A stretch of 64,000 bases of DNA, taken from NCBI GenBank assembly GCA_012295275.1, contig CM022667.1:5580001-5644000 (forward strand). Reading direction: 5' to 3'. Below are positions 6,025-53,520 of this stretch, in pieces. Within the stretch, counting starts at the first letter, position 1; every line of letters begins with the position of its first letter. The position numbers and the translations under genes are program-made. This DNA is from Chrysomallon squamiferum (taxonomy: Eukaryota; Animalia; Mollusca). The notes below the pieces were generated by a model, which was given only the letters and a program-made list of their open reading frames with translations, was not told where the DNA came from and did no database searches.

Positions 6025-6094
<70 letters not shown>

Positions 6095-9000: not shown

Positions 9001-12000
9001 AGATTTGTATATGTTAGTACACTATTTGAAGAAAAGTAAACATTTTTTTAAAAACATTTCATAAAATTTTATTATAAAATATGCTTATAAATTCTACATA
9101 GAACATGGATTATTTTATTAACAAAAGTTAACATATTTAGCTTACTGAACATTAGAAAGTAATGGTGATATAATGTGATTGTACATTTTAATATTTATGA
9201 ATATTGCATTGATTATGAATTGACTAACCACCAAAACTGATACTGGATTAATTCCAGTTACCTCAATTACAGATTATATTTTATTTAGTTATGTCTGAAC
9301 AAGACGTTAAAGTGTCTTACTTTATGTAATAGTTTGCATTAAGTTACATTTTAGAATCAGGCACTACATGCACTTTCTTCACTATTTATTATGTAACAAC
9401 AAACCAGTTGATAAAACTAAGATTTAAATATTCTAAACTGACTAAAGTGATAAATCTTTCTGTTATGCCTAAAATATTATATATTTTTAATTTTCAACTT
9501 TTTAATTCCTGACTCAATGAAAGTGAATTTAGTTGGTTCACATGACAATGTTGTTTTGTTTTTTGTTTCTGATAAATGTTTTCAAAATTCAAATCTGACT
9601 ATCCTTTAAATACTCAAAATAAACATGTATTATTAAATATAAACACTGACATACATGTAACAACGAGCTGCACACTTTGACTGACATCAGACTTGATGTT
9701 GTTTCCTGCTTCACAAGTGTAAAATCCTGTATCCAGACATCCAGCTTCATTCCAGCTGTACTCCACTGACTTGGAGTTTTTCACTTCACGTAGAATGTGT
9801 GAGTTGTTTAACAGTTTGATGTGAGATGCTGGATTACTGTCAACTTCACATCTCAGAGACACAGGAGTCAGTTCATCAACTGTTATCTTTGTAGACTTTG
9901 AGTTTAAAGTGAAATAAGTTACTGAAGTCTGATCTGTAACATGTAAAAATAAAATGAAAGATTATTCTAAACAAAGTTTACCATTAAATTCCAACTAAGC
10001 TGACATGGCAAAGTAATCAACTTTTATTCATATCCTATATTAATACAGTATAACATAACAGTATGTATATTTATCACAACACTCAATTAAATAAAGAAAT
10101 AAATAAAAAGCACTTAATATATTTGAAAATACAAGTTCAGTTTAGATCTCTCTTTCCCCTTCTTTGTGTGGGGGAGGGAGGGAAGGTGAAAGAAAGAATG
10201 AGTGTGTATGTGTGCTAACTACTACTGTCTAACAGTACTATCTCTGCCACTAAAAACAAAGGTAAATTTAGAGCATTACCTAACCATAATTTATACCTAT
10301 ATAAATTTATTATGAGCTAATTTTATATATACCTGCAACACAGTTAGAATTACAAATCATACGGCACATGATATTGACTATGCAGGTACAACAAATTACT
10401 CTCTGCATCCTACAAGCCAAACTAAGATGTAATATTATGGAAATTATGACCGACTCACTGCATTTCAACAGCTGAAAAACAGCCAGTGATGAGTGCTTCT
10501 TTAGTATCACAGGGAGAGAGTGTATACAGAATATGTAAAACAAACAAAAGACAGAATATGAATTGCAAATAACACAGAATATGAAACAGAGGCAAGTTGC
10601 AGATTACATACACTGTTTCAGTCAAGTTACTTATGACTGCTAACAAAATTTACAGATGCATAGCTAGAGGAGATGGAGATGAACATATTTAATGTAGCCA
10701 CTTTCACATAGACGTTGCTAGAGTATAAGCATCTAATGGCAAGCAGACAACCACAGCAGTCATCAAGAGCTCCATTTTCTATTTTTTTTTTTTTTTTTTT
10801 TTTAACTTTAAACCTTTTGATCTCTATACCATATATTTTGGTTTTATTGATACTATGAAGCAATAGTAAACTTTGTTCTGATTTTGACTGTACGAGAAGT
10901 GTTACTAATTATAAAGCAGTCAACAAAAATAATTAACAGACAACTTTATGAAAAGTGATATTAAATTAGATTGTTCATTCAATTGAGAACTGATATAATT
11001 ATTTTTATGTCAGCTGGTTCTTACTAACTGTTACCCTGATATGCTAACTACAAACTTTCAGTGTAAAATAAATATATTCTACATGTGCTCAAAGCTTCTA
11101 TTATTATTGTTCTTATTGTTCTATATGTTACAAGAAGATAGTGACTTACACTGAACATCCAAGGTAACAGTTTTGTTTTTTGACTTGTTTGTGTTTACAT
11201 TGGTGACAATACACACACAAACTCCAGCCTCTGTTCTGTGTATTTGTGTAAAAGAAAGTACAGCATCATTTATTTCCTTTGTCTGACACTTCCACTTGTA
11301 AGAGCAGACTTCATCACAGTCTGCCTCACACAAAACAGCCACGTTTTTACCTTCTACTATCTGTACTGGTGAACTTCTGTTCAGTTTAATGTTTTCTGGA
11401 CCATCTGAAAATGAAAATAAAATGTTTTCTGTATTAAAACTGTAGTAATGCACATCCATGTGTATCTGTGTCTCTGTTAATGAAGAAGGGAGAAATATTT
11501 TATTTAAGGTTTACCCTGACAAAGAAAGGACAAACAACAGTCTTTGAACAATCATTCATAAATTACTGCCTAGGAATGGATATGACACAATGGAAGTACC
11601 AAGTAAGTCTATACCTAGAAACTATAACATGTAAACATTTTGTGTACTTCCAAGAGATTGATCTGTGTTTTATTTGAAACTGAATTTTAATTAACAACAA
11701 AGTAAAATACCAAATGTAACCAGGTTCCAAATACCTGAAAGTTATGTTCTTTATAGCACTGAAAGCATTGACTACAAAGTGGACAAATTCTAATGTTCTT
11801 AAAAAAATGTTTTGTTTACATTGCAATATGTCATCAAATATATCTATAAGGAATTGTAGGCATTTCTGAACAAAGTTATTTATTATTATCCAGTTCTCTA
11901 ACAATCCTCTTTTAGTACAAAAATAAATTATAAAAACAAAATATTGCTGCTTCTACATACAACCTTGAATTTTTGAATTAATAATAGGACATTACCTCTA

Positions 12001-15000
12001 ACCCATAACCACTACTTCTATGAATATAAATAATAGTAATAATATAAAATAATTTGACAACATTGAAAAAAACTAAATATATATATATAATAATAATTTG
12101 ACAACATTGAAAAAAACTAAATATATATATATAATAATAATTTAGATCATTTATAAATAAATAAATTTCTAAGATTATTTTTAAACAAAACTCACAGTGT
12201 ACTTTGAGAGTGAAACTTTTAGTGAGAGATTTGGCTGAGACTCTGTTAGTCACAGTACATGTGTACTTCTGTCCTGTTTGGTTTCTTCTCACATTTGTAA
12301 CACTGAGCTCAGACCCTGACTCAGTCTGTTGATTGTTAAGAGACCAGGAAAACAAACATGGCGGCTTGCAGACAGCAGCACAGTTTACATTCAAATCATC
12401 TCCTTCTTCAATTTTTCCTGGTAAACTAAACACAACACTGTCTGGTCCACCTAAAAATAAAATAAAATAAAATAAATAAATAAATAATATAAATAATATA
12501 AACATAAACATAAACATGCACACTAAATACAGCACAGTCTCATCCACCTCAAATGGATTCTTTACTTACAACTTCTTGTAATCTAAGCATGTTTATATAT
12601 AAGATTCACTAATTTAAAATATTTCATCTTTTTTGCTACAAGTATCACTACAGCAGCATTACTCAAATTGTTATAAAAATATAATTATTTACTTACTGCT
12701 CATTTCTAATCTCAGTGTGTTATTGGACATTCCACCAGTATTCAGTTTACAAAACCAGTCTGTGACATCCTGATCTGAAGCTTTGTTAATTGTCAGAGAA
12801 TACTTCTTAGTGGTTGACAGTCTGCTGTTTGTCCCATCTCCACACTCTACAGAATAACTCTGTCTGTCAGCTGGAGAACTCCACACAGAACAGTTGCCTG
12901 AGTTCTGTCTCAGTGAACCAATACTAGAACTGGCATCATCTTTATAAAATATTATTAAGTCATCAAGATTTTCAGCACCTGACACTGTACAAATCAGAGT
13001 AAACTGTTTGTCTTTGACTAAATGAGATGAAGATCCAGACAAAGTCAGTGAAACACAATCTGTAAAGTAAAATATGAAATTTGATTTGTTTCTTAAATAA
13101 AATTGTATTCATTTATTCAACTTTTATTTTTATCTTTATTATTTTTTTATTATGCAATCTGCAAAGATGAGTGTTAACTTTAAGAGTTCCTTTAAAAGTT
13201 ACAGTTCTCTTCATATATTACAAATAATAAGTTAAATGTTTAGAAAATACAGAACATGCACTATATGTTATATTTAAAAGCAACTATTTACATTATAAAA
13301 TAGAATGAATTTATGTTTTATTTAATGTTGCAGTGAACACATTTTAATTAATGTTTACATGGAATAACAGCCATTAAAGATAATACAGATATATTTGGGT
13401 TAACCAGCTGGAAACAACCCATTTCATTTAAGATCTAAAACACTTTTAGATAAAGTGATAATTGTGTTTTAGTCTTCATAAACTAAATAGGTAATTAGGC
13501 TAGTTCATTTAAAAGTTGGAAGTATCTATAAAAAAATAGCTCCAATTTTCCTGAAAGCCTTCGTTCAGTGCATGTGAAACATTTCCTTTATAAAGCAACC
13601 CTTCTGTCAATAGTTCTGATAATTAGTATTTAAATAATTTAATTTCTAGAATAATTTCAGTCATCAGTTAAAATAGCAAGAGGGATGAGCAAACATTTCA
13701 CTTAGTATTACTGATAAATGATACCATAAATTTTGAAAGCAAATATCAACAGTTGAAAATAATCAAATGAATTTATGTTTGATATAAATGTGAATAAGGA
13801 GAAAGCAGATATCAAGAGAGGTAAAATTTGCAGTCATGCAGTAGGATACTATTTTTATATGTACCACAGACAAGGAAGTACAAACTATGACTTTCTCTCA
13901 CTGATCTAAAATAAGACATTGCACAAGTGTTCTACCTGCACATTCAATAAGGAAGGACCTACACTTTTAAATGGCTAATTAACTTTAAAATAATGATATC
14001 AAAGAAAGATTGTTCATGTCTGACAAATGAGAGCTTTTGCTTGATTTTCCCCCCCCCAATATTTCATGTTATAGTTTGTTTTAAATATACTTTTGAACAA
14101 CTTCACTATCTGTAACATTGAGGGATTGAGGTTCATATTTCATATACACTGCAAATTGTTCATAACTATTTTATTAACACTGGTATCATTTTTTATAAAT
14201 TTACTAACATGATTACATTCATCAAAAGGAATATATAGCTTTTGGGAAAAAATGCACTTATTACAATTATAAATTTTATTATAAATTTTTAAAGAAATCC
14301 GAAAAATTACTGAATTATTTTTAATATTGTACAATACAAAGAGAACCTAACATGACGAGATATATTAAAATTGTTAGATAACTACTTTGTATTGCCAGTG
14401 AATATATTTACCTCTAGACTGTATACAGTCATAATAAAATAACAAGTGAATTATTTCTTTTCTGCACTTATTATAAACCTCATTAAAAGTTAATAATAAT
14501 AACAATAATAATAATAATAAATGATTTTCATTTCTAAGACATTAAATGTATTTAAATATTAACTTACTGAAGAATACTGATATAAATTTAAAACATTTTT
14601 ATGAATTACAATATGATAGAAATATACAGCATTTCAGTGAACACAACTCTGGTAAAATAAAGATAAATAATGAGTGAACTATTTCTTTCAGTATGGTTAT
14701 CTTTGTTAAAGATCAATATATATATATATTATTACTTATGTATTTTAAAGAAGTTTTATTTTTAACAGTTAAAAAGATATCATTTATTTAATATTCAAAA
14801 CTAATAACTGTATAATACTAATTATAATGTATTTAGTTAAATCTTTTTTACAAAGAGAAATCCATATATAATTATGTATTCCAAATTAAAATGTGAACAC
14901 AATTATGGTTGATCATCAACAGATATTCATAAATTCTACCAAAATAATGATATCGAGCACAACATCAGTAAATGTATGTAACACTTTAACGACAGAGAAA

Positions 15001-15220
15001 CACGTGTTTTGCGTATGACACAGATCAAATCAGATTTTAATGTTTTGTTAATTATTTTAAATAAAGAATATAGTAAATATTGAGTAATTGTTCTAAATGT
15101 TAAAATATAATTCCATTCATTAAAACATAAAAAAAAATAACAGGAAAAGGAATGTGTAATTATCAGTCAGAATAGAAGTAAAATAATTTTCAGTTGAAAA
15201 CCAATCAAGATTGAATGTTG

Positions 15221-15251
<31 letters not shown>

Positions 15252-15340
15252 TCTTTAAACTTACCTGAATAAGCAACACTACTCAAGAAGAAAACCACTA
15301 AAATCATTTTTTTATCAACAGTCCAAAACATCGTGGACAT
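1010..15340 (-). CDS. Gene A: IgSF type-I membrane receptor (SP-V-Ig-Ig-Ig-Ig-FN3-TM); cytoplasmic exons not identified
   Basis: GT-AG exons with the frame open throughout: SP 15265-15340 (MSTMFWTVDKKMILVVFFLSSVAYS), V-like 12697-13059, Ig2 12196-12450, Ig3 11150-11404, Ig4 9655-9933, Ig5 8066-8371, FN3 5356-5655 (SLSWTEEFNGG...LQPNTRYLIRVLAFNKFG), TM 1010-1156 (IVVVGSGVGAGLLVVVVVVILLIFLF-RRRK). All internal exons are multiples of 3, phase 1-1. Confidence 0.88.
1407..1478. repeat. (CA)n microsatellite
   Basis: Read directly from the sequence. Confidence 0.95.
2239..2907 (+). mobile_element. Internally deleted hAT Blackjack-like element in the FN3-TM intron of gene A
   Basis: Imperfect TIRs tagggttgcatat (2239) and atatgccaacccta (ends 2907). 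An internal degenerate frame at ~2575-2715 reads KCKYKFTPDMQNKLQYFKKGKD*WEAECLVCKSRIYISIAYRG, resembling a hAT transposase N-terminal zinc finger. The 8-bp TSD is not conserved. Confidence 0.6.
5911..6091. repeat. Compound (CT)n ... (TA)n(GA)n microsatellite
   Basis: (CT)n at 5911-5969 and (GA)n at ~6043-6091. Confidence 0.95.
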
Positions 15341-15409
15341 AATATACTAATTATAAATTGTGACACAGTTTTAGATTCAAAATCCTGTTCTCACAACAAG
15401 CTATTCGTT

Positions 15410-15428
15410 GCAGTTCACTTCCTGGTTT
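15410..15428 (-). promoter_or_regulatory. Conserved ETS (CAGGAAGT) / ETS-IRF composite-like element upstream of gene A ATG
   Basis: AAACCAGGAAGTGAACTGC on the minus strand, 70-80 bp upstream of the ATG. It is identical in all four promoters seen. Confidence 0.5.
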
Positions 15429-15890
15429 ATTTCTGTCAAAATGTGTACTTCTCTCCGGATTTAGTTAATGCAATAACATCCCATTTTCCATTTGAACTGA
15501 ACTCACACAAGTATGGTGAATAATGATCACGTAAATGTTTGTTTCACGTTTGATTACAATTATCAGCAATCTTTTGATACCAAAGACTAACTCGCAGCGA
15601 ACTTCCACTAAGTTTACAATACTGAATGTATAATCTAAAACGAGGCTAGGTATTTCCTCCACTGTGCATGGATAGGCTACATGACCCGGGAAGTGCCCAG
15701 ACTTGTACAACTTATCCTAATTCTATTTCCAGGTGCTCATTCATCGCACTCAGACTTTGGATGACGAGTGTGTGCAATCAAAATTTTACAACGAACTAAT
15801 TCTGCTACACAGTTATTAGCGCGAAGGATGTGCAATAGGAACAATCTGTTTGTATTTGTAATTTAATTGTTTCCTTGTTTGTCTTTAGTA

Positions 15891-29841: not shown

Positions 29842-32800
29842 TTATGAGTTTTCATAGACAGTGAGCACAGAGTATGGTGAGTCTTTTCTAGCTTCCAGTG
29901 ATGAGTAATTGTTTGTAGTATCCGTGTTTCTGTCAGTATCTGAAAAATAGTCTTGATTACACAGTTACACAGAATATAGTTAGAGTATTAGTCGTAACAA
30001 CGTAAAAAACTAAAACAGGAAGTAAAACAGTTTGTTCTCGCTGTACTTGAGATCGCTAATAATATTCAAAGTAATAACTTATCTGTTGTGTTATTTTATT
30101 TTGTTTGTTTGTTGTTGCTTTTTTAATTCTGACAAAATACACTTCATGAGCAAATTAAAGACAATAAATGTTAATATAAAATATAAACAATGTATACTTC
30201 TACTGATTATTTTCCTTTATTTTAAAAATATCAGCTAAATCATAAAAACAAATGAAGTGTAAATATTTATTATTATTATTATTATTTATTTATTTTTTGT
30301 TGTAGATTTACCACTTTATTCTTCACCACAATTCGTGATCAGATCCTTCATATGTTAGTTATTTAATATTAGAACAATAAAATAAGACTTTGTACTTTAG
30401 GTATGTCTCAGTTATTCTGAAAACAAAGAAAGCAGGCACACAGCATGTCTCTTATTTAACAGGCAGCATCACAGAAACTCTTGAATCTGTTACACTTTGT
30501 ATTTACATACTGACCTTGATTTTGTTGAAGATCATCATAGAGAGAAGATTCCTGTACTCCAGTGTTAATCTGTCTGAAACAAACAAAACATAGAGAACTC
30601 GAGAATAATTGAATTTTGGTTTATTTAATCTATTTCACATATGTGTGTTTATGTACGTGCATGAATACCTATGTGTTTATAGTTTTTCGTCCGTAATAAT
30701 TTTCTTTTCCAAATACCCTTTTGACTAATTAGCATAATATCTATTTTTCAGTTAAAAGGAAAACGACTTAAACATTGTTTTTCTATTTCTTCCTCACATT
30801 TTCATAGCTTACCTTGATGTGTACGTGTTCTCACTCTTAGACTTTTCTAAAATAAAAATAAATATTAGAAATGTGAAATAACTCTTATTATTAATATTTG
30901 TTTATATATGATAAACAAAATTTTTAATATTCAAAATATTGAGAGCACGAAGCAAGAAACATTATTCATTATTTGTTATAATAATTTGTTCAGTGTACTT
31001 GTAAATTTACCTTTTCTCTTCCAGCAGGAAAAGAAAACAATTGCCCCTATGAAAAGTTCTATTCCCAGTACTATTCCAATTCCAATACCAATTCCTGTTC
31101 CTAGTAAACTATCTTTTTCTTGCGAAAATTCTGAAGATTAAATAAATGAAAAAGAACGTGAAAATATCCTGTAAAACACACAGCAAGTTGGTTTCAGATA
31201 TTACGTTTTCATTTTAACTATCTATTAATCTGTGTTTGAGTGTGTGTATATATATATATATAGATAGATAGATAGATAGAAAGAGATAAATATATAGATA
31301 GATAGATACACAACAGCATATTAGACATATACTGTGTTAGCTGAGATTTACTATGATACAATGCAGATTACGTTTTATATAAACAATTACAAACATTCCA
31401 GTGTAGTTTTTTATTCGCGTTCTAAATTAGTCACTTTTTAAATGAACGTTCTTTGTTGCACGAATCACTTCAAAAACATAACTTCACGTTGTTGTATTTT
31501 TACCATAGATGAAAAGATGCTGTTCATTCGTTGAGGTTTTGAAACCAAATTTGTTAAAAGCCAAAACTCGAATCAGATATCTGGAGTTTGGTTGTAAACT
31601 AGAAATCTCTGCTGTGTGATTTGTGTGAAGACCTTTTTCACCAAACTGCTGAGTGAGATTTGTCCACTCAGATGTTGTGTCTGCTCGATACTGTACAAGA
31701 AATGTTTGTTGTGATCCTGCATTAAATTCTTCTGTCCAAGACACTGACACTGAATGTGGACCAGTACTCCAAATTCTCACGTCAGATGGAACATTTGGAG
31801 GACCTTCAAGTTGAAAGCGTTACAAAATAGTGAAAAACAAAAAGTAGTGAACAATGAATTTTGTTTAAACGCTATTGATATTATGCAATATCTATCTATC
31901 TGCCTATTTTCAAATAAGGATATACATAATGATCAGCAAATCGGTATTTCAGACAAAATTAAACGATGCCATATTTCAGCACATAATATAAATGAAAACA
32001 ACTGAGACTGTAATACTAGTCTAAGTAGACGAAAAGTGTGTGTGGGATCAATGTTTTTCATTCTAACTTTGTTTATACCTATTTGACTCAGAGATAAATT
32101 CAAAACAAGATCCTTCCTTGAGCCTCCATTTGACACAGAAACCTGATAGATTCCAAAATCTTCTTGTTTAACATTTATCAGTTTATATTCACCTACAGCA
32201 GACACATTTGTTGTGAGTACAGGTTGTGTAGATCCAAGACTTTTATTGTTTACATCTGTGAGTTTATACCAGGTAAATGTTGGGACTGGATTGGCAATCA
32301 CAGAAATGTGTAGAGTTACATTTCCACCTTCTACAGAATCAAATTTGTTCTGAACTGTAACTCGATGATCAAGTCTTGGTGAACCTGTAGGAAATAACTG
32401 TCTTGTTACTAACATACAAATGATAAAATAAAATAAAGTAAATTAAATAATTGTATATAGTGACTTACATTTTTGTGATTTCTTTCAAATAATATGCAAG
32501 TAGTAGATATAATGTTACACCATTACATACATGTAACAAGAAGCTGCACTCTTTGACTGACGTCAGACTTGATGTTGTTTCCTGCTTCACAAGTGTAAAA
32601 TCCTGTATCCAGACATCCAGCTTCATTCCAGCTGTACTCCACTGACTTGGAGTTTTTCACTTCACGTAGAATGTGTGAGTTGTTTAACAGTTTGATGTGA
32701 GATGCTGGATTACTGTCAACTTCACATCTCAGAGTCATGGGAGTCAGCTCATCAACTGTTATCTGTGTAGAATTTGAGTTTAAAGTCAAAGAAGTTATTG

Positions 32801-35800
32801 AAGTCTGATCTGCAACAAGTAAAAACACTGCAATATATTTTGTTAAATACATTTGAACATTAAGTGACGAATATTTTTGCACATACAGTAGTTTTAATCA
32901 TTCATATTGGGTTGTTAACATATCACAACAATTTTTCATATGTAACATGATATGTTTAAAAACAATTTTTTAGAGTTCTCTTGAACGTATATGTATTTAT
33001 TTCAAAAAGCAGAAAACAATTTTACTTTTCACAGATTGTATTTCTGTATTAAAAAAAAAAATCAATTTTTTTAAGGAGACTCTGAATTCCGGTGACATTC
33101 TTGTTGTTTTAACTGTAAACACCAGTGTTTAGCAGACACAGAAGTATGTCGATGTCACACAGTGAAGCAAATTTGAAAGAAAAAGGATCAGCTAATTGAA
33201 ATTATCCATGTTTATAAACAGAATGTTGAAGTCCTTGAAGGAAAAGCATATGCAGTTAATGAATTGATGAAGAATGTTCTAGAGACAATGTAGTTAGAAA
33301 CAGAGTCTACAAGATAACAACTGAAATTCTCCTGTGTAATGTCAGACTGAAATAAAATAAAAATAAAATATCATGTGAACACAACCTGAAAAGAATTATG
33401 TATGTATGTATATATGTACGCATACATTCATGATTGGATGTTTATACAGTCTGAAATAAAGCATAAGTCACTGTTAAATTATTTACATTTAACATATAAT
33501 ACATTTAATTCATCGACTGTTATCTTTGTACACTGAGTCTAAAGTCAAAGATATTACTAAAGCATGATCTGTAACAAATAAAGAATTACTGAAAATAAAA
33601 ATTATGTTTGATAGAAAATTCAGGTAAAACTCAGGTGAACTGATTCATTCTGATGAAGAATTACTGAGCTAAAAGGATGACGTCTGAATTTAAAAATTGT
33701 TATAACTTCCTGTTTGGTATTTTTCTTTCTTCGTATTTTCATTTTACTTTTTTTTTATCTTTGTAATACAACCAGTCTATATTAATTAATTTATTTATTC
33801 ATTTATTTATTACATTTTCTGTGTTTTTAAGTAGGTAAACTGAACATTATCACAATTGTGTATCTCAGATAATATAAAAACATTAAAATAAGTAAAACTA
33901 TTATAAATGTGTTTACATTATGTTTCTGAATTTATTTGATTTTGATAAATCGTTTCGAATTGAATGTTTTGTCACCATTTTCCTGTCTTTATGTTTCTTT
34001 TTATCCAGGTTTTTTCCTTCGTTTTCTTCTTTTTAACTTGTATATATATATATATATTCTTTTTCTTTTGATAAGATTTCCTGCTTTCGTTAATTTTGAG
34101 TTTTTAATGTGTATAAAATACAGTACTTTTATTCAATAACATCATTCATGTCATTATTTATTTCTATCTTTGTTAAACAAATATTACAGTGCAAATATAA
34201 ATCCTGTTTCAAAATCAAATTCTCTGTTTACTTACACTGAACATCCAAGGTAACAGTTTTGTTTTCTGACTTGTTTGTGTTTACATTGGTGACAATACAC
34301 ACAGAAACTCCAGCCTCTGTTCTGTGTATTTGTGTAAAAGAAAGTACAGTATCGTTTATTTCCTTTGTCTGACACTTCCACTTGTAAGAGCAGACTTCAT
34401 CACAGTCTGCCTCACACGAAACAGCCACGTTTTTACCTTCTACTACCTGTACTGGTGAACTTCTGTTCAGTTTAATGTTTTCTGGACCAACTGAAAATAC
34501 CGATAAATTAATTAATAATGATTGCTCTCTGTATTAAAACACTGTACATGAATATGTGTGTGAGGGTGTGTGTTCCCAAAGAAGAGAGAAATGTTTTATT
34601 TAAGGATTATGATGACAAAGAAAAGAAAACAACATACTTTCAAGTGATTCATTTGTGTGTTATTTTTTGTTATTTGTTTTTACCAATTTTAAGTAACAAA
34701 GTAAAATGCATAAAAAGGGTTCAGCTACCAAGGATGTCGTACTGTTATTATTTGTAGCAGAGGAATACTCTATTAGAAAGTGGTCACATTTTATTGCTCT
34801 TTGAAAAATATTTTGTTTTAATGTGTGATCAAACATATTTTCAAGACCTTATATGCATTTCTAAACAAAGACATACGCTAATATCCATTTCTCTAATAAT
34901 CCTATTTTAATACAAATTAAACAAAAATCAGATTATTGCCGCTTGTGCAAATAACCTTGAACGTTTGGTTTTGCTTATGCAACTGTCAGTATGTCATCTT
35001 AATTAAACTCAGATTGTGATGCAAGAAAACTGAAATATGCAAATATTTTGTAACAATATTATTTTTTGTTTTATTTTCCATACAGCTATTACTGGTCATC
35101 TATCAACAGCAACAAAACAACAACAACAACAACAATAATAATATAAAATAATTTGACAACATCCAAAAAATGAATTGAGATCAGTTATAAATAAATAAAT
35201 GTCTAAGATTATTTTTGAATAAAACTCACAGTGTACTTTCAGAGTGAAACTTTTAGTGAGAGATTTGGCTGAGACTCTGTTAGTCACAGTGCATGTGTAC
35301 TTCTGTCCTGTCTGGTTTCTTCTCACATTTGTAACACTGAGCTGAGACCCTGACTCAGTCTGTTGATTGTTAAGAGACCAGGAAAACAAACATGGCGGCT
35401 TGCAGACAGCAACACAGTTTACATTCAAATCATCTCCTTCTTCAATGTTTCCTGGAGAAGTCAAGTCAACACTGTCTGGTCACTCTGAAAATAAACTAAT
35501 AATAATAATAAAAAAAACAAATACTGCTACTACTACTAATATAATTAAGCATGTGATCTTTTAATTTGTAAAGATAACTTCCATTAATGACCATGTGTTA
35601 AGGTGTATATTACATTTACTGATATGTAATATGCATTAGAAAAAACAATTACTGCTTTTGTAACAAAGTAATGTTTTCTAGAACTACGCTATTTTTTTTT
35701 TTTTTTTTCTATGGTGGTTTAACCTGGGACAAAAGTTGCATTAGAAATGCAAGGAAAGACAAAGACTCCAGTCAGAAAACAATATAGGACAAAAGTCTCC

Positions 35801-36613: not shown

Positions 36614-39326
36614 TAATAAATAACATTAAAATAATTATAAATAAAAAAAATACTTTTTTCCTTGTTCATTTTATTAAAACTGTACAAAGAAATGTATATT
36701 AACATTGTTCAAAAATATATACAATACAAATGTCCAAATATATGTACATTAACACTGTAGAAAGAAATACATTTTTGCATTACACAGATATATGTATATG
36801 AACATTGTATAAAGATATTTTCATTATAAAGTAACCAATGTATTGGTCATTTCTATTCAAAGCAAACACAAATAGCACATCAAAACAGTACATGACAGTC
36901 TATCATTTTCAATTTTCATAATGCTTATCATAATGATAATAACAACAAACATAATAAACAAATTGTAAAACAAATAACATTAATAAAAAAGTATGACTCT
37001 TTCAACATATTACAATTAATCTAAACTTGTACTGCTAATCAGATACACTAAATTTAATTATTATAATTATCATTCAGTTTCAGGGAATATAGTTAAAGTT
37101 TAATTTTTTTTTATGAATAGATTTTGTTTTCTTGCTATAAATGATATTTTGTTATAAAAATATAATTATTTACTTACTGCTCATTTCTAATCTCAGTGTG
37201 TTATTGGAGATTCCACCAGTATTCAGTTTACAAAACCAGTCTGTGACATCCTGATCTGAAGCTTTGTTAATTGTCAGAGAATACTTCTTAGTGGTTGACA
37301 GTCTGCTGTTTGTCCCATCTCCACACTCTACAGAATAACTTTGTCTGTCAGCTGGAGAACTCCACACAGAACACTGATCTGGTTTCTGTCTCAGTGAACC
37401 AATACTAGAACTGCCACTATTGTTATAAAATGTTATTAAGTCATCAAGGTTTTCAGCACCTGACACTGTACAAGTCAGAGTAAACTGTTTATCTTTGACT
37501 AAATGAGACGAAGATCCAGACAAAGTCAGTGAAACACAATCTGTAAAATAAAAGATAAAATCTTTGTTTTCAGTATATTTTTGTTTCTCTGTTTTTCAGG
37601 TTTTCTTTTTTTACTTTTTAAAATCTTTTAAAAGATTTATTTAATTTTTAATTCTAAGGAGTCTTATTAACATTTTACTACCTATTTTTTTCTTTTTTTT
37701 TTTGCTATATACATATTTTATTTCATGATAATATTATTTTATTTGTAAGTGAAAATGTGATTGTTAAATAGCACATTCTGGTTACTCTTAATAATTTTCC
37801 TTGAACATACAAAGACAAAAATTCACAAGAGATTTAGAATTTGTTTTTCCTAATATAAAGGTATTTTCTAATTAATATATATTTTTTTTATCCGAATGAA
37901 AAGATATGTATGAAACTTAAGACCTTATTTTTAATGTTGTCTTTCACTGAACCAAATCAGAGACATAGATTACAAGTAGAAAGTGAAGTGATCAGAAAGT
38001 AGAGAACTTAAGTTGATGTTACTGACTAACGTAAATTAATTTTAAAAGCAGATGTTTACAATTTATGTTTTAATGGACACTGGTATTTAGTGGGAATAAC
38101 CCAGTGGGTGGGTTGTCCCCCTTCATACAAATTATTTCCTTAAACAAAGTCCTGTTTAAAAAAAATAAAATAATAATAAACAAATAAAATAAAATAAAAT
38201 AAAATAATGTTAACAATAATAATAAAGTAACCCTGGTTTGATATCTAAAATAATCAGATTTCTAGAATCACAGCTGCCACATTTGGAGGACAGATTTCAG
38301 TGAGATTTGCCAGAGTTCAGTTTGTGCACATTTTTGTTTTATTTTGTTTCTTCCTCTTCACCTTTTACAATCTGCCTTAAATATTGTGTTTAAATTATTA
38401 ATTACTCTTTTATTAAAACAAACATTTTTCTATGAATTTAAAACAAAATTAATTCTATCAAACGGAACACATATTCTTTTGAAAAAAAAAAATATACCTA
38501 TTAACATATCACAGTCTAAATTTAGATTTTTGTAAACAAGTCTGAGACAATTATTTTTAATTTTATGTAAAAGATAAACTGAACATAACACGATACAGAG
38601 ACACTGAAACTCATATGTAACTAATTTCTACAGTGTCCTCTCATTTGTCACACATCTGATAACAACACATCTCATACCTGAGTGAACTGCTAACTATATT
38701 GTCTCTACCTAGCACGGAATAATGGACTCATCTTCCTCTAGGTTACAGAGTCAGCTTAGGGAATAATTAAACAAACTCCTACTAACAACTGAACACAAAC
38801 ACTGAACAGACATTATGTTAACATCCATAACATTACACATTCAGACACATAACACCAAGCTAATATGAATGATACATGAAGCTCTAGAGCATATATTAGA
38901 GTGTTACAGTACATATCAGTTTACACATGTGTTAAGTAAAGTTAAATTAATGTTATAGTGGTTGGATTACTTAGTCACTAAGCTGACTAGGGGAGACAAC
39001 CCTTTCTATTGCCTGTGAATATATTTACCCCTAGACTATAGACATTGATAATCAAACAACAATTAAACTTTTATCTGAACTGTGCAATATCTTTAAAACC
39101 TTCTGTTTTAAATAATAATTTTAATATAGACAAATTCTTGACAATTAAGATGAAATAATAAGTAAACTATGTTTTGGTATTAATTATTAAGTCTAATAGA
39201 ATATTAAAAATGGCTTCTATTTTTATAAAGATTTTCTCAGTAAAAATAAATAAATCATCAATGATGATAGACATGAAATTAAACATTCATTTGTTTTTCA
39301 TGTTATTTTAATCTTAAAATAATAAT

Positions 39327-39841: not shown

Positions 39842-40128
39842 GATTATTATTATTATTTTAATGTTAAATTAATTTCCAATTTCACATATTCTACTTTAAT
39901 TCCATACATTAAAAAAATATTAATAATAAAAATAAATAAATAAATAAATTAAGGAAAATGAGGTAGCTACAGTAATTCAGAATAAAACTAAAATAATTTT
40001 CACAGCTGACAAGCAATCGAGACTGAGAGTCAGGAAGTTTTAACAGTTTCTGTAAACTTACCTGAATACGTAACACTGTTCAAGACGAACACCATAAAAA
40101 TCAGTTTCTTATCAACCGTCGAAAACAT
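29842..40128 (-). CDS. Gene C: complete 11-exon IgSF receptor model (SP-V-4xIg-FN3-TM-ITIM/ITAM tail, 711 codons) with an in-frame TGA at the start of exon 3
   Basis: Exons: SP 40062-40128, V 37178-37540, Ig2 35230-35484 (TGA at 35480-35482), Ig3 34236-34490, Ig4 32531-32809, Ig5 32079-32384, FN3 31504-31803, TM 31011-31130, tail 30813-30846 (34 nt), 30515-30573 (59 nt), 29842-29939 (ends TAA). Phases chain correctly (1,1,...,1,2,1). Confidence 0.85.
33506..33570 (-). pseudogene. Relic of an Ig4-type exon start in intron 4 of gene C (second copy at ~48577-48641 in gene E)
   Basis: ttacag|ATCATGCTTTAGTAATATCTTTGACTTTAGACTCAGTGTACAAAGATAACAGTCGATGAATT aligns with the true Ig4 start ATCAGACTTCAATAACTTCTTTGACTTTAAACTCAAAGTCTACAAAGATAACAGTTGATGAACT, with a 2-nt deletion. 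Confidence 0.7.
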
Positions 40129-42654: not shown

Positions 42655-44110
42655 TCAGCAATGTCTCTGACTTGTGTTTTCATAGACAGTGAGTACAGAG
42701 TATGGTGAATCTTTTCTTGCTTCCAGTGATGAGTAATTGTTTGTAGTATCTGTGTCTCTCTCATTATCTGAAACCAAATATGTAATAATTGCACATCATG
42801 TCTTATACAGTAGTAGTAATACTAGTAATATCAGAAGTAATGGAAGATCAGCACACAAGGTACGTAGCAATTAAAATAGTTGTCTGTGTGTTGATCAAAG
42901 AATGAAATTTAAAGATTAGTTATGTTTTTCAAAATATAACAGATCATATTAACAAAGATTTTGTATTGTGCCTATTCCATTTATAATTCATAATTATATA
43001 TTCATGGTTGCAGAGACATAATCTATGAATCACAAAATATTTTATTACTATAGTTACAGTGAGCAGATTGATATACCATCTGTCTTTCCTGTCTGGCCAA
43101 GACAGATTTGATAATAGTAATTAAAAACCTGCTATTTTAGCTAAATGTTATATTTTTATAAGCCAAAAAAAAATAATAATAATAATAAAAAAAAAAAATA
43201 AAAAAAAATACTATCACAGACTGTATTTATGCTGATTTTGATTACTTCTCTCTTTCAGTTATTTAATAATTTATTATTATTTTTATTTATTTATTTTCTC
43301 TATTCTAAAACTAACAGATTTTACTGACTTTGACTTTGTTGAAGATCGTCATAGAGAGAAGATTCCTGTACTCCTGTGTTAACCTGTCTGAAACAAACAA
43401 AACTTTCCTATTATTTAATTATTTTAGTTTTGAGTATATTAAAATAACATCTTTAAGATAAATAAATAAATAAATAAACAAATAAATAAATAAATAAGCA
43501 AAATTAATAAAAGGATTTAAAAAAATAAATTTAAATAAAAAAAATAAATTAACAAGCAATAAATTTGTGTAATTATTAAGTGAACTGAACATGTAGTGAT
43601 AAACAATGTATGTTTCATATCAGTTTAACCTTCATCTTTATTTTGGTGTCTCAATATACTATAATATTAATTACCTTTGTGTATAGATGGGATCTGTTAT
43701 ACACTTCTCTAAAATAAAACAAAATCATCAAAATTAAATGTAAAAGAGGTGAAATGACATTAATTAGATTATCAGTCCTGAATTTCTATAAAATTACAAA
43801 CATAATAATAACAATAAGAAACAACCATAAATTAAAGAGAAATATTAAAAAAATTATGTGCAAAGAAACAAGAAAAATAAATTCATTTGAATGTAGGAGT
43901 GCCTTAATAATAATAATAATAATAATAACAATAATAATAAAAAACAAATAAATCAAAAAAGTAAAAAAAGTAAAAAATATTCACTTGTTTTAATCCAGTG
44001 AATTAAAATAATAACTGCACCGATAAGAAGAATTGCAAGCAGTGTAATTCCAATTCCAATACCAATTCCTGTCCACAGTAATCTGTCCTTTTCTGATGTA
44101 CAGTCTGAAA

Positions 44111-44157
<47 letters not shown>

Positions 44158-45675
44158 TATAATAATAATAATAATAATAATAATACAAAAATAATAGTAA
44201 TAGTAATAATCATTGATATATAATTGGAAAAATATTTTCTAGTTGTACCTCAAGTTAAAGTAACTTGACAATTATTATAAATTTAGCAATCACACAATTA
44301 TAATAATTCATATTAACGTTTTCTGCAGTTTTACTGTAAAATGCCTATTAAATTAATATTTCACTGTACTGAAAGTATAAGGGAAATTAAGTCAGTGCAG
44401 TAGTTCCATTCAAACTTTGACTCTTACTCAGGGTAATTATCATCAGTTTCTTGAAGCCTGTTTGAGAAACTTTTTGTATGTGTCATTGTTAAAAATGTAT
44501 TTTTAATTGAATTTACCACAAACAAATATTTCCTTTTCCTTGGTAAAGTGTTTGAATCCAAATTTGTTAAAAGCCAAAACTCGAATCAGATATCTGGTGT
44601 TTGGTTGTAAACTAGAAATCTCTGCTGTGTGATTTGTGTGAAGACCTTTTTCACCAAACTGTTCAGTGAGATTTGTCCACTCAGATGTTGTGTCTGCTCG
44701 ATACTGTACAAGAAATGTTTGTTGTGATCCTCCATTAAATTCTTCTGTCCAAGACACTGACACTGAATGTGGACCTGTGATCCAAGTTCTCACATCAGAG
44801 GGAACAGTTGGAGGACCTTCGAATTAAACATTTTATCACTGGTTTGTTGAAAATACTCAAAGGTTATAAATAAAGGATTTATCTCATATAACTGAATACA
44901 TGAATATTTAATGTTTTGGAAACTGTAGTTCTACTTCAGTAGAAATTAAATCTTTATCTACAATTCTGAAAGAAAAATCATGTTGTTGGTTTGATAATAG
45001 TAGAAATGTTTTTAAACTTGAACTTTCATATCAGATTAATTCATGAAGAAAACAGCTAAATGTTACAAACTTATCTGTCACAGGCTCAAATATCATTTAT
45101 GCAAACGATGAACAAGAGCTTCACAAAAGATAGAAATGATATTGAATGACACACACATGCACATGCACACAAACATCATTCTGACCTGATACCATACCCA
45201 TCTTATGTAGAATTTTAACTTTCTTACTATTACTATTTTATTATTATTATTATTATTATTATTTCTTTTTTTTTTTTTTTTTTTTTTGTCATTTGTGCAG
45301 ACAATATTTTTTTAAAAAATGAAAATATTTACACTCTGCTTTTACAAAAAACAAACATTTTGTAAATACCTTCTTCAGTGAGATTAAATTTTTCCACAAG
45401 ATCTGTTTTAGATTCTCCATTTGACACAACAACCTGATAGATTCCAAAATCTTCTTGTTTCACATTTGTCAGTTTATATTCACCTACAGCAGACACATTT
45501 GTAGTGAGTACAGGTTGTATAGATCCAAGACTTTTATTGTTTACATCTGTGAGTTTATACCAGGTAAATGTTGGAACTGGATTGGCAATCACAGAAATGT
45601 GTAGAGTTACATTTCCACCTTCTACAGCAGCAAACTTGTCCTGAAATGAAACTCGATGATCCAGTCTGGGTGAAC
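42655..45675 (-). CDS. Gene D (3' part only; 5' part lost in assembly gap): Ig5-FN3-TM-ITIM/ITAM tail
   Basis: Exons: Ig5 45370-45675, FN3 44517-44816, TM 43985-44104 (LLWTGIGIGIGITLLAILLIGAVIILIHW), tail 43675-43708, 43329-43387, 42655-42767 (ends ...YSSLEARKDSPYSVLTVYENTSQRHC*). Frame is open. Confidence 0.85.
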
Positions 45676-46570: not shown

Positions 46571-49500
46571 CATAGATGAAAAGATGCTGTTCATTCGTTG
46601 AGGTTTTGAAACCAAATTTATTAAAAGCTGAAACTCGAATCAGATATCTGGAGTTTGGTTGTAAACTAGAAATCTCTGCTGTGTGATTTGTGTGAAGACC
46701 TTTTTCACCAAACTGCTGAGTGAGATTTGTCCACTCAGATGTTGTGTCTGCTCGATACTGTACAAGAAATGTTTGTTGTGATCCTGCATTAAATTCTTCT
46801 GTCCAAGACACTGACACTGAATGTGGACCAGTACTCCAAATTCTCACGTCAGATGGAACATTTGGAGGACCTTCAAGTTGAAAGCGTTACAAAATAGTGA
46901 AAAACAAAAGTAGTGAACAATGAATTTTGTTTAAACGCTATTGATATTATGCAATATCTATCTATCTGCCTATTTTCAAATAAGGATATACATAATGATC
47001 AGCAAATCGGTATTTCAGACAAAATTAAACGATGCCATATTTCAGCACATAATATAAATGAAAACAACTGAGACTGTAATACTAGTCTAAGTAGACGAAA
47101 AGTGTGTGTGGGATAAATGTTTTTCATTCTAACTTTGTTTATACCTATTTGACTCAGAGATAAATTCAAAACAAGATCCTTCCTTGAGCCTCCATTTGAC
47201 ACAGAAACCTGATAGATTCCAAAATCTTCTTGTTTAACATTTATCAGTTTATATTCACCTACAGCAGACACATTTGTTGTGAGTACAGGTTGTGTAGATC
47301 CAAGACTTTTATTGTTTACATCTGTGAGTTTATACCAGGTAAATGTTGGAACTGGATTGGCAATCACAGAAATGTGTAGAGTTACATTTCCACCTACAGA
47401 ATCAAATTTGTTCTGAACTGTAACTCGATGATCAAGTCTTGGTGAACCTGTAGGAAATAACTGTCTTGTTACTAACATACAAATGATAAAATAAAATAAA
47501 GTAAATTAAATAATTGTATATAGTGACTTACATTTTTGTGATTTCTTTCAAATAATATGCAAGTAGTAGATATAATGTTACACCATTACATACATGTAAC
47601 AAGAAGCTGCACTCTTTGACTGACGTCAGACTTGATGTTGTTTCCTGCTTCACAAGTGTAAAATCCTGTATCCAGACATCCAGCTTCATTCCAGCTGTAC
47701 TCCACTGACTTGGAGTTTTTCACTTCACGTAGAATGTGTGAGTTGTTTAACAGTTTGATGTGAGATGCTGGATTACTGTCAACTTCACATCTCAGAGACA
47801 AAGGAGTCAGTTCATCAACTGTTATCTTTGTAGACTTTGAGTTTAAAGTCAAAGAAGTTATTGAAGTCTGATCTGCAACAAGTAAAAACACTGCAATATA
47901 TTTTGTTAAATACATTTGAACATTAAGTGACGAATATTTTTGCACATACAGTAGTTATAATCATTCATATTGGGTTGTTAACAAATCATTAAAATATTTG
48001 ATATGTAACATGATATGTTTAAAAACAATTTTTTAGAGTTCTCTTGAACGTATATGTATTTATTTTAAAAAGCAGAAAACAGTTTCACTTTTCACAGATT
48101 GTATTTCTGTAAAAAAAAAAAAAATCAATTTTTTTAAGGAGACTCTGAATTCCGGTGACATTCTTGTTGTTTTAACTGTAAACACCAGTGTTTAGCAGAC
48201 ACAGAAGTATGTCGATGTCACACAGTGAAGCAAATTTGAAAGAAAAAGGATCAGCTAATTGAAATTATCCATGTTTATAAACAGAATGTTGAAGTCCTTG
48301 AAGGAAAAGCATATGCAGTTAATGAATTGATGAAGAATGTTCTAGAGACAATGTAGTTAGAACCAGAGTCTACAAGATAACAACTGAAATTCTCCTGTGT
48401 AATGTCAGACTGAAAAAAAAAAAAATATATATCATGTGAACACAACCTGAAAAGAATTATGTATGTATGTATATATGTACGCATACATTCATGATTGGAT
48501 GTTTATACAGTCTGAAATAAAGCATAAGTCACTGTTAAATTATTTACATTTAAAAGTGATTAACATATAATACATTTAATTCATCGACTGTTATCTTTGT
48601 ACACTGAGTCTAAAGTCAAAGATATTACTAAAGCATGATCTGTAACAAATAAAGAATTACTGAAAATAAAAATTGTGTTTGATAGACAATTCTGGTAAAA
48701 CTCTTTTTAAAAATGTCCAACAGGTGAACTGATTTATTTTGATGAAGAATTACTGAGCTAAAAGGATGACGTCTGAATTTAAAAATTGTTATAAGTTCCT
48801 GTTTGGTATTTTTCTTTCTTCGTATTTTCATTTTACTTTTTTTTTATCTTTGTAATACAACCAGTCTATATTAATTAATTTATTTATTCATTTATTTATT
48901 ACATTTTCTGTGTTTTTAAGTAGGTAAACTGAACATTATCACAGTTGTGTATCTCAGATAATATAAAAACATTAAAATAAGTAAAACTATTATAAATGTG
49001 TTTACATTATGTTTCTGAATGTATTTGATTTTGATAAATCGTTTCGAATTGAATGTTTTGTCACCATTTTCCTGTCTTTATGTTTCTTTTTATCCAGGTT
49101 TTTTCCTTCGTTTTCTTCTTTTTAACTTGTATATATATATTCTTTTTCTTTTGATAAGATTTCCTGCTTTCGTTAATTTTGAGTTTTTAATGTGTATAAA
49201 ATACAGTACTTTTATTCAATAACATCATTCATGTCATTATTTATTTCTATCTTTGTTAAACAAATATTACAGTGCAAATATAAATCCTGTTTCAAAATCA
49301 AATTCTCTGTTTACTTACACTGAACATCCAAGGTAACAGTTTTGTTTTCTGACTTGTTTGTGTTTACATTGGTGACAATACATACACAAACTCCAGCCTC
49401 TGTTCTGTGTATTTGTGTAAAAGAAAGTACAGTATCGTTTATTTCCTTTGTCTTACACTTCCACTTGTAAGAGCAGACTTCATCACAGTCTGCCTCACAC

Positions 49501-52500
49501 AAAACAGCCACGTTTTTACCTTCTACTATCTGTACTGGTGAACTTCTGTTCAGTTTAATGTTTTCTGGACCAACTGAAAATACCGATAAATTAATTAATA
49601 ATGATTGCTCTCTATATTAAAACACTGTACATGAATATGTGTGTGAAGGTGTGTGTTCCCAAAGAAGAGAGAAATGTTTTATTTGAGGATTATGATAACA
49701 AAGAAAAGAAAACAACATACTTTCAAGTGATTCATTTGTGTGTTATTTTTTGTTATTTGTTTTTACCAATTTTAAGTAACAAAGTAAAATGCATAAAAAG
49801 GGTTCAGCTACCAAGGATCTCGTACTGTTATTATTTGTAGCAGAGGAATACTCTATTAGAAAGTGGTCACATTTTATTGCTCTTTGAAAAATATTTTGTT
49901 TTAATGTGTTATCAAACATATTTTCAAGACCTTATATGCATTTCTAACAAAGACATACGCTAATATCCATTTCTCTAATAATCCTATTTTAATACAAATT
50001 AAACAAAAATCAGACTATTGCTGCTTGTGCAAATAACCTTGAACGTTTGGTTTTGCTTATGCAACTGTCAGTATGTCATCTTAATTAAACTCAGTTTGTA
50101 ATGCAAGAAAACTGAAATATGCAAATATTTTGTATCAATATTATTTTTTGTTTTATTTTGCATACAGCTATTACTGGTCATCTATCAACAACAACAACAA
50201 TAATAATATAAAATAATTTGACAACATACAAAAAATGAATTGAGATCAGTTATAAATAAATACATGTCTAAGATTATTTTTGAATAAAACTCACAGTGTA
50301 CTTTCAGAGTGAAACTTTTAGTGAGAGATTTGGCTGAGACTCTGTTAGTCACAGTACATGTGTACTTCTGTCCTGTCTGGTTTCTTCTCACATTTGTAAC
50401 ACTGAGCTCAGACCCTGACTCAGTCTGTTGATTGTTAAGAGACCAGGAAAACAAACATGGCGGCTTGCAGACAGCAACACAGTTTACATTCAAATCATCT
50501 CCATCTTCAACATTTCCTGGAGAAGTCAAGTCAACACTGTCTGGTCCACCTGAAAATTAAATAATCTTGATGATGATGATGATGATAATAATAATAGATT
50601 AATAATAATAACAATGTGATCTTTATAAGCATGAGAAATGCTGATTTTTTGAAGCTAATACTACAAATTAAACTTAACACTAGTATAAACTAAACTATTA
50701 AAAAACATAAACTCTGATTATTCTTATGTGTTTGTTTGGTGATCAGCTGTTTTACTCCTGTACAGGTAGTACTTATATTGTACACCTAACTATTTTTTGA
50801 TTCTTTAATAAAATAGCAAAATAAATATCAACTATATATGAGCTGATACAATTTTCTTTTCTTCTTTTCTTTGATCTTCTTGCAGTACTTGTAATTTATC
50901 AAAGAGGAATTGATATACTAGCAAAAAAAAATAAAAAAAAAAATAAAGTAATTAATAAATAATAATAATAATAATAAATAACATTAAAATAATTATAAAT
51001 AAAAACAATTCTTTTTTCCTTGTTCATTTTATTAAAACTGTACAAAGAAATGTATATTAACATTGTTCAAAAATATATACAATAAAAATGTCCAAGTATA
51101 TGTACATTAACACTGTAGAAAGAAATATATTTTTGCATTACACAGATGTATGTATATCAACATTGTATAAAGATATTTTCATTATAAAATAACCAATGTA
51201 TTGGTCATTTCTATTCAAAGCAAACAAAAATAGCAACACAAAACTGTACATGATAGTCTATGATCTTCACTTTTCATAATGATTATCACAATGATAATGA
51301 CAACAAACATAATAAAGAAATCTTAAAACAAATTATATTAATAAAAAAGTATGATTCTTCCAACATATTACAATTAAACTAAACTTGTACTGCTAATCAG
51401 ATACACTAAATTTAATTATTATAATTATCATTCACTGTTTCAGGGAATATAGTTAAAGTTTAATTTTTTTTTATGAATAGATTTTGTTTTCTTGCTATAA
51501 ATGATATTTTGTTATAAAAATATAATGATTTACTTACTGCTCATTTCTAATCTCAGTGTGTTATTGGAGATTCTACCAGTATTCAGTTGACAAAACCAGT
51601 CTGTGACATCCTGATCTGAAGCTTTGTTAATTGTCAGAGAATAGTTCTTAATGGTTGACAGTCTGCTGTTTGTCCCATCTCCACACTCTACAGAATAACT
51701 CTGTCTGTCAGCTGGAGGATTCCACACAGAACAGTTGCCTGAGTTCTGTCTCAGTGAACCAATACTAGAACTGCCACTATTGTTATAAAATATTATTAAG
51801 TCATCAAGATTTTCAGCACCTGACACTGTACAAGTCAGAGTAAACTGTTTGTCTTTGACTAAATGAGATGAAGATCCAGACAAAGTCAGTGAAACACAAT
51901 CTGTAAAATAAAAGATAAAATCTTTGTTTTCAGTATATTTTTGTTTCTCTGTTTTTCAGGTTTTCTTTTTTTACTTTTTAAACATTTTACTACCTATTTT
52001 TTTTTTTTTTTTTTTTTTTCGCTATATACATATTTTCTTTCATGATAATATTATTTTATTTGTAAGTGAAAATGTCATTGTTAAATAGCACATTCTGGTT
52101 GCTCTTAATAATTTTCCTTGAACATACAAAGGTAAAAATTCACAAGAGATTTAGAATTTGTTTTTCCTAATATAAAGGTATTTTCTAATTAATATATATT
52201 TTTTTTATCAAATGAAAAGATATGTATGAAACTTAAGACCTTATTTTTAATGTTGCATTTCACTGAACCAAATCAGAGACATAGATTACAAGTAGAAAGT
52301 GAAGTGATCAGAAAGTAGAGAACTTAAGTTGATGTTACTGACTAACGTAAATTAATTTTAAAAGCCGATGTTTACAATTTATGTTTTAATGGACACTGGT
52401 ATTTAGTGGGAATAACCCAGTGGGAGTTGTCCCCCTTCATACAAATTATTTCCTTAAACAAAATCCTGTTGAAAAAAAAAAATGAAAAAACATAATAAAC

Positions 52501-53274
52501 AAATAAAATAAAATAAAATAAAATAATGTTAACAATAACAATAACAATAAAGTAACCCTGGTTTGATATCTAAAATAATCAGATTTCTAGAATCACAGCT
52601 GCCACACTTGGAGGACAGATTTCAGTGAGATTTGCCAGAGTTCAGTTTGTGCACATTTTAGTTTTATTTTGTTTCTTCCTCTTCACCTAATACAATTTGC
52701 CTTAAATATTGTGTTTAAATTATTAATTACTCTTTTATTAAAACAAGCATTTTTCTATGAATTTAAAACAAAATTAATTTTATCAAATGGAACACATATT
52801 CTTTTGAAAACAAAAACTATACCTATAAACATATCACACTCTAAATTTTGATTTTTGTAAACAAGTCTGAATCATAATTATTTTTAATTTTATGTAAAAG
52901 ATAAACTGAACATAACAGGATACAGTGACACTGAAACTCATATGTAACTAATTTCTACTGTGTCCTCTCATTTGTCACACATCTGATAACAACACATCTC
53001 ATACCTGAGTGAACTGCTGACTATATTGTCTCTACCTAGCATTGAATAATGGACTCATCTTCCTGTAGGTTTCAGAGTCAGCTTAGGGAGTAATTAAACA
53101 AACTCCTACTAACAACTGAACACAAACACTGAACAGATATTATGTTAATATCCATAACATTACATATTCAGACACATAACACAAAGCTGATATGAATGAT
53201 ACATGGAGCTCTAGGGTATATATTAGAGTGTCACAGTACATATCAGTTCATACCAGTGTTCAGCAAAGTGTTAG

Positions 53275-53308
<34 letters not shown>

Positions 53309-53423
53309 TTAATATTAAATTAAGTCAAGAAGTTTTAACAGTTTCTGTAAACTTACCTGAATACGTAACACTGTTCAAGACGAACACCATAAAAATCAGT
53401 TTCTTATCAAACGTCGAAAACAT
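46571..53423 (-). CDS. Gene E (5' part only; TM/tail lost in assembly gap): SP-V-4xIg-FN3, close paralog or allele of gene C
   Basis: Exons: SP 53357-53423 (MFSTFDKKLIFMVFVLNSVTYS), V 51538-51900, Ig2 50295-50549, Ig3 49319-49573, Ig4 47594-47872, Ig5 47145-47447 (one-codon deletion versus C), FN3 46571-46870. Frame is open and introns are nearly identical to gene C. Confidence 0.86.
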
Positions 53424-53501
53424 AGTTTAGTAATTATAAATACTGACAAAGTTTTAAAGTAAAAATCTCGTTCTCACAACAACAAACGACGTTTTCTGCT
53501 C

Positions 53502-53520
53502 GCAGTTCACTTCCTGGTTT
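53502..53520 (-). promoter_or_regulatory. Conserved ETS/IRF-like element upstream of gene E
   Basis: Same 19-mer as in A, B and C. Confidence 0.5.

Follow-up and report, generated by a model that had tools for sequence, protein, structure and literature searches.

Receptors of the immunoglobulin (Ig) superfamily that signal through an ITAM and Syk are documented in the oyster (PMC6994640) and suspected in Hydractinia (PMC9546547). The oyster receptor CgIgR is described as one gene encoding five Ig domains, a transmembrane (TM) helix and a short YxxL..PYxxL tail with a spacer of 8, and its ITAM is of the form D/ExxYxxL/I with an upstream acidic residue; the tail recruits CgSyk and drives ERK (PMC6994640). 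A second oyster protein, the haemocyte-expressed CgNCAM1, is inhibitory and contains three Ig domains, one fibronectin type III (Fn3) domain, a TM helix and two ITIMs recruiting SHIP2 (PMC11841013). The cnidarian Alr genes of Hydractinia are arranged in tandem, encode V-set, I-set and Fn3-like domains followed by a TM helix, include pseudogenes and carry ITAMs and ITIMs, the two motifs being reported from separate sets of tails (PMC9546547). In Drosophila Draper-I/II (PMC4503800) and Daphnia Dscam (PMC6851185), the ITAM/ITIM content is set by splicing of the tail. For the vent snail Gigantopelta aegis, the 'CEACAM5' orthogroup OG0000013 (130 genes) is listed as an expanded immunity-related family, and a SYK-like gene is found among the rows of the annotation supplement (PMC7895826). 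No report of a gastropod ITAM-Syk Ig receptor was found in the literature covered, to which subscription journals contributed little.

The window analysed here is a stretch of 64,000 nucleotides from Chrysomallon squamiferum (assembly GCA_012295275.1, contig CM022667.1, positions 5,580,001 to 5,644,000); all positions given below are counted from its first base. It is AT-rich animal DNA (GC 24–37%) and harbors a tandem array of Ig-superfamily genes on the minus strand, namely A, a truncated B, C, the 3' half of D, C' and E. Gene C is similar to CgIgR in encoding five Ig domains, a TM helix and a short tail with two YxxL motifs, the two being likened by description; it differs in its Fn3 domain, which is not among the features reported for CgIgR, in a spacer of 7, in the lack of the acidic residue upstream of the ITAM and in its location within a mosaic array (PMC6994640). 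The array as a whole resembles Alr in its tandem arrangement, domain types, damaged copies and tail motifs, whereas the canonical Cys and Trp of the Ig domains, absent from Alr, are kept in the window genes (PMC9546547); an Alr name was not found among 30 of the 150 listed matches (see below) that were looked up. With CgNCAM1, gene C shares the combination of Ig domains, a single Fn3 domain, a TM helix and tyrosine motifs, and differs in the number of Ig domains and in the motifs themselves (PMC11841013). Draper and Dscam have different ectodomains and their splice switches are demonstrated, in contrast to the putative one of gene C, where joint skipping of two tail exons would act alike (PMC4503800, PMC6851185). 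The G. aegis protein P0022, named CEACAM5-like, falls in the same clade as the gene C family, and CEA is the best sequence match among solved structures; this family may be OG0000013, but its members are not vertebrate CEACAMs. The term 'ITAM' is absent from all 10 supplement files of the paper describing this orthogroup (PMC7895826).

Gene C and the tandem array

Gene C comprises 11 exons (40128 to 29842, minus strand) encoding a signal peptide, a V-like Ig domain, four more Ig domains, one Fn3 domain, a TM helix and, on the last three exons, the cytoplasmic tail. RNA evidence consisted of contigs from four runs of one study, aligned at 90% likeness to positions 29700-37700. Exon 1 (40062..40128), with the ATG and the signal peptide, is taken from the model, and its 3' end is matched by the loose end of an RNA contig lying at the V exon. 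Exon 2 (37178..37540) encodes the N-terminal V-set-like domain (Pfam ig), exon 3 (35230..35484) Ig2 and exon 4 (34236..34490) Ig3, the latter found by Pfam, model and RNA. The Ig4 exon 5 (32531..32809) is joined to exon 4 (32809/34236) in three of four runs and to exon 6 (32079..32384), encoding the I-set domain Ig5, in all four. Exon 7 (31504..31803) encodes the Fn3 domain (Pfam fn3, E 2e-10) and is joined to the TM exon 8 (31011..31130) in two of four runs (31130/31504); the predicted TM core is free of charged residues. The intron upstream of the Ig4 exon contains, as seen by eye at ~33570-33500, a degenerate fragment similar to the beginning of that exon. The V-like domain was modeled with nine strands (AlphaFold2, pLDDT 88.6); its best Foldseek matches are antibody and nanobody V domains, and Cys and Trp are conserved without exception in the alignment of V domains.

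An in-frame TGA was missed by the first-pass annotation; it is codon 145 of the full model (35482-35480) and the first full codon of exon 3 when the first acceptor AG is used. The assembled copy may hence be a null allele, it may contain an assembly error, or it may be rescued by splicing to a downstream acceptor. The first of these, a null allele or young pseudogene whose tail is never translated, is a realistic possibility at somewhat below even odds; it concerns this copy only and is compatible with every reading of the family given below. Apart from the stop itself, it is favored by damage in the neighboring genes, since E is frameshifted and B truncated. It is opposed by the open frame of copy C', which is 95–99% identical and, like copy A, has GGA at this codon, and by the RNA contigs at the exon-3 joint, which are open-frame variants, the TGA being absent from the listed rows of RNA differences. 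In addition, the TGA could be a consensus error, and an AG nine bases downstream, a putative acceptor by sequence, would bypass the stop and preserve the frame.

Copy C' (46571..53555, minus strand), matching gene C exon by exon, lacks its TM helix and tail in a 200-base N gap (46368-46567). Paralog D (42655..45675, minus strand) is present as its 3' half, the 5' half missing at the N gap, and comprises Ig5, Fn3, a TM exon (44104-43985) and the three tail exons (43708-43675, 43387-43329 and from 42767), with the same ITAM and YEN as in gene C. Paralog E (56124..63571, minus strand) has another N-terminal V-like domain, divergent Ig2 and Ig3 and the same tail type as gene C; its Fn3 exon (58179-57881) is 299 nt long, and a 1-nt deletion near 58025 causes a frameshift ahead of the TM exon. 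Paralog A (1011..15463, minus strand) has ectodomain exons 88–97% identical to those of gene C and an unrelated TM exon (1158 to ~1010, 43% against that of gene C) behind a 4.2-kb intron, which weakly matches G. aegis P0050 (pairwise E 0.009); tail exons of gene A were not found within the window. Of gene B (24928-21691, minus strand), signal-peptide and V exons were found together with intron remnants, and no further exons before gene A. On either side of the N gap, [E, C'] and [D, C] are near-duplicates of each other (88.6% identity in an alignment of 5.2 kb and 97% in one of 4.0 kb), which points either to tandem duplication or to a join of two haplotypes at this position. A tandem repeat of ~108 bp (63524-64000) overlaps the 5' edge of the N-terminal exon of E, with a copy at 27820-27977 between B and C. 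Open frames of 80–137 aa at 2156-2470 (+), 422-664 (+) and 17002-17528 lie in introns or between genes, and none of five such stray frames matched Pfam.

Exon-by-exon identities indicate that the array is a mosaic, in which near-identical ectodomains are placed on different TM and tail types. Between C and E, Ig4 to Fn3 are 88–95% and the last two tail exons 87–92% identical, Ig2/Ig3 only 60–63%, and the N-terminal domains differ. The same mix is found in G. aegis: the C-type tail is combined with one V type in P0005 and with the other in P0015/P0016, while proteins with short NPxF-like tails have the same V type as well. In a quick tree, the ectodomains group by species and the tail types cross species. 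An AU test rejected a single clade of same-tail ectodomains (p 2.5e-7, for a group chosen after an overlapping tree had been seen), which chiefly reflects the nesting of gene A with C and D. In vertebrates, KIR, LILR, Siglec and CEACAM1/3 receptors likewise show near-identical ectodomains, concerted evolution and different TM and tail types. The cluster thus appears paired-receptor-like, with two differences: the ITAM is located in the gene C receptor itself, and the inhibitory partner is putative, no clear ITIM-only member having been found among the G. aegis tails examined. The four V exons at 13059-12697, 22522-22160, 37540-37178 and 51900-51538 show patchwork differences. Those of A and C', a pair selected from six in hindsight, differ by 13 non-synonymous and no synonymous changes (p 0.046), a hint of conversion or diversifying selection.

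The spliced tail and its ITAM

Downstream of the TM exon, three small exons missing from the open reading frame track had been proposed to encode the tail of gene C, and their sites, phases and spliced translation were all found as claimed. They are located at 30813..30846 (t1, 34 nt, phase 1-2, poorly conserved), 30515..30573 (t2, 59 nt, phase 2-1) and 29842..29939 (t3, 98 nt including the TAA at 29844-29842) on the minus strand, all internal sites being AG/GT. The joints 31011/30846, 30813/30573 and 30515/29939 were identified with intron-type ends in RNA contigs of three, four and three of the four runs, respectively. By the usual size limits, the term micro-exon fits the 34-nt exon and not those of 59 and 98 nt. 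Because the 34-nt exon is only 59% and the TM exon only 63–65% identical between gene C and the paralogs D/E, and one RNA contig spans the gene C TM exon with 0 differences, the first two tail joints are of the C type and C-type transcripts carry the tail; the joint to t3 (29939/30515) could also derive from paralogs. The spliced three-exon tail is thereby confirmed. It is approximately 66 aa long and contains SLYDDL on t2 (30545-30528) and, on t3, YSSL-x7-YSVL (29907-29863) and YEN (29856-29848); no Pfam match was obtained for t3. These motifs, and SPYSVL within the second ITAM half, match the consensus forms assigned to them letter by letter.

The significance of such matches was evaluated with 200,000 shuffles of the gene C tail. 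The ITAM consensus occurred in 0.35% of the shuffles (p 0.0035) and the ITIM consensus in 14%; YxN arose in 43%, and an ITAM preceded by a separate ITIM in 0.01%. The ITAM consensus is present in all three window tails (C, D and E) as well as in the G. aegis homologs P0005, P0015, P0016, P0017 and P0021. Gene C agrees with each of four G. aegis tails at 16–17 of 21 residues in the block from the Asn before the first Tyr through YEN, compared to 2 of 14 in the linker preceding it (Fisher p 0.0005, one pair). Both ITAM tyrosines, both +3 leucines, the third tyrosine and the 11-residue spacing are invariant in all seven aligned close tails. In two more distant G. aegis paralogs, P0012 and P0014, the three tyrosines and YEN are kept and the +3 positions have drifted (YEGL-x7-YAKM and YEGF-x7-YAKT). 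In P0021, the terminal tail unit occurs four times; in three of these, Phe replaces the second ITAM Tyr, and only the last has the full pair. An origin of the motifs as a chance product of AT-rich DNA was rejected for the ITAM on account of its conservation and is still applicable to the ITIM.

This selective conservation of the tyrosine block indicates selection on the ITAM. Conservation likewise supports the terminal Y-[ED]-N, claimed as a Grb2-type site, although the bare YxN form is frequent by chance and was lost in paralog E (YSPL-x7-YLVL, then YEH). With the consensus in the RNA-spliced tail of a TM protein and its local conservation, gene C has the sequence features of ITAM-bearing receptors, albeit without the classical acidic residue 2–3 positions upstream of the first ITAM Tyr, which is preceded by T-N-N in gene C and by S-S-N in its four closest counterparts from G. 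aegis.

The relationships of the family extend beyond the two vent snails. Three word-based searches yielded 18 proteins, all from G. aegis, with identities of 41–67% for the two window exons queried; two of these word-limited searches were made with the tail region (four proteins) and with the V domain. A HMMER search with P0015 covered 1.84 billion representatives; among the 150 matches listed, a TM helix was called in 81 (by a hydropathy rule with a few false calls) and a tail of at least 25 aa in 73. A strict ITAM was found in 13 of these 73 tails, compared to 0.3 expected. A quick tree of Ig4 to Fn3 groups the peltospirid sequences as sister to those of an abalone clade (SH-aLRT 94), in which the complete tails of P0055, P0070, P0080 and P0104 read Yxx[LV]-x8-9-YxxL-xx-YEN; the abalone protein P0071 and its near-copy P0168 have another tyrosine layout, and no TM helix was called in P0044, P0066, P0069 and P0164. 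A search of the Atlas with the G. aegis TM helix and tail gave scores of 0.83 or lower throughout, leads of no weight. P0018 of G. aegis, a relative with five Ig-Fn3 repeats and a short tail, appears by eye to contain three scavenger-receptor-like Cys-rich repeats as well.

The upstream tyrosine site

The first-pass annotation read SLYDDL as an ITIM and SPYSVL as ITIM-like, and suggested that one tail might switch between Syk/Shark and SHP-type outputs. In its developed form, this explanation states that the upstream site, SPYSVL or both recruit SHP2 or SHIP and compete with Syk for the tail. SLYDDL does fit the consensus (S/I/V/L)xYxx(I/V/L) in all three window tails. These copies are not independent support, since t2 and t3 were recently homogenised: C and D/E differ at ~0.1–0.2 of synonymous sites there, compared to ~0.45 for the TM exon and t1 (small counts). 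The equivalent sites of the five G. aegis homologs (ALYEDM, ALYEDL, ALYEDM, SLYEDM and PVYEDL) keep the tyrosine, but none of them fits the ITIM consensus, and the upstream tyrosine is absent from P0012 and P0014. The conserved core at this position is Y-[ED]-D-[LM]. SPYSVL is not kept either, being APYDVL in G. aegis, where the ITIM match has moved to SNYSSL.

The residue following the upstream tyrosine points in the same direction. Asp or Glu is found at pY+1 in eight of eight sequences, where a rule derived from human proteins calls for a medium non-polar residue in SHP1/SHP2 sites. Human sites with a polar or charged residue at pY+1 did not support the recruitment of SHP1 (PMC8631942), and the C-terminal SH2 domain of SHP2 favors hydrophobic or small residues (PMC12878756). 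The library motifs of the latter domain do permit Ser at +1, as found in both ITAM halves (PMC12878756), and oyster ITIM receptors use SHIP2 (PMC11841013). The upstream tyrosine and the second ITAM tyrosine are 30 residues apart, a spacing that might be bridged by a tandem-SH2 phosphatase. Joint skipping of t1 and t2 (93 nt) would keep the frame and remove the upstream site alone, leaving the ITAM, but such a joint was not detected among the 15 of 24 RNA joints listed. Considering also the 14% chance rate of the ITIM consensus, we regard a dual-output tail as distinctly unlikely.

Consensus matches to the ITIM are nevertheless enriched across the class (37 of the 73 related tails, 9.7 expected). 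Together with an ITAM they occur in 10 of the 73, seven of these being cases where an ITAM tyrosine is part of the ITIM match, so that the presence of both motifs in one tail is not special. Src SH2 of human proteins binds pYEEI (PMC7337045), and Y-[ED]-D-[LI] forms the second ITAM half in P0021, P0071, P0088 and P0148. Most likely, the upstream Y-[ED]-D-[LM] either docks an SH2 domain that prefers acidic residues, of the Src family or another, or serves as a third ITAM half-site amplifying the signal; it is probably neither an SHP-recruiting ITIM nor a true off-switch.

Proposed function and significance

We propose, with a probability of roughly 60%, that the C-type tail belongs to an activating receptor of the gastropod Ig superfamily acting through Src-family kinases, the ITAM and Syk. 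This concerns the C-type receptor, the assembled copy of gene C having the exon-3 stop. Its splicing, architecture and conservation are observed; the mechanism beyond them is drawn from the analogies to oyster CgIgR (PMC6994640) and Draper (PMC4503800). Binding of an immune or recognition ligand at the V-like tip would cluster the receptor, and the ITAM tyrosine pair would be phosphorylated by a kinase of the Src family, for which the acidic site may provide the docking position. A Syk/Shark-type kinase would then be recruited to the phosphorylated YxxL-x7-YxxL, and YEN would add a Grb2-type link to ERK.

YxxL also matches sorting signals. The tyrosines might accordingly serve adhesion, the cytoskeleton or trafficking, through Src/Nck docking and YxxL endocytosis, in a nephrin- or NCAM-like manner and without Syk-type ITAM function. 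Relatives carry hemicentin-, NCAM-, nephrin-, Dscam- or CEACAM-like names in the databases, other family members end in NPxF-like tails, the ITAM lacks its acidic residue, and the acidic Y-[ED]-D sites are similar to pYEEI (PMC7337045). The names, however, are automatic best-hit labels, and the invariant spacing and leucines of the seven close tails argue against this explanation. Tandem expansion, V-like tips and homogenisation of the ectodomains suit immune-type clusters better than single-copy adhesion genes. A purely adhesive or trafficking role is consequently considered unlikely, and the activating receptor is preferred.

A broader scenario is offered as speculation, and we hold it to be rather improbable in its entirety. 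Vent snails and abalones would share an old mix-and-match family of paired receptors, at present catalogued under 'hemicentin/NCAM/CEACAM5-like' names. Its V-like tips would be exchangeable, its stalks homogenised and its conserved tail types few, so that ligand and output could be set independently of each other. The 93-nt cassette of t1 and t2 would be a splice switch adding or removing a phosphatase or Src docking site before the ITAM, possibly in symbiont or self recognition.

As the case of SLYDDL shows, a match to the ITIM consensus is by itself weak evidence. What appears to be new is a gastropod receptor of the known ITAM-bearing Ig kind, in which conservation supports the activating half well, the inhibitory half being weak. 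The tail defines peptides for testing and provides a signalling handle on a large and poorly annotated gastropod Ig family, which may be the one reported to be expanded in chemosymbiotic snails.
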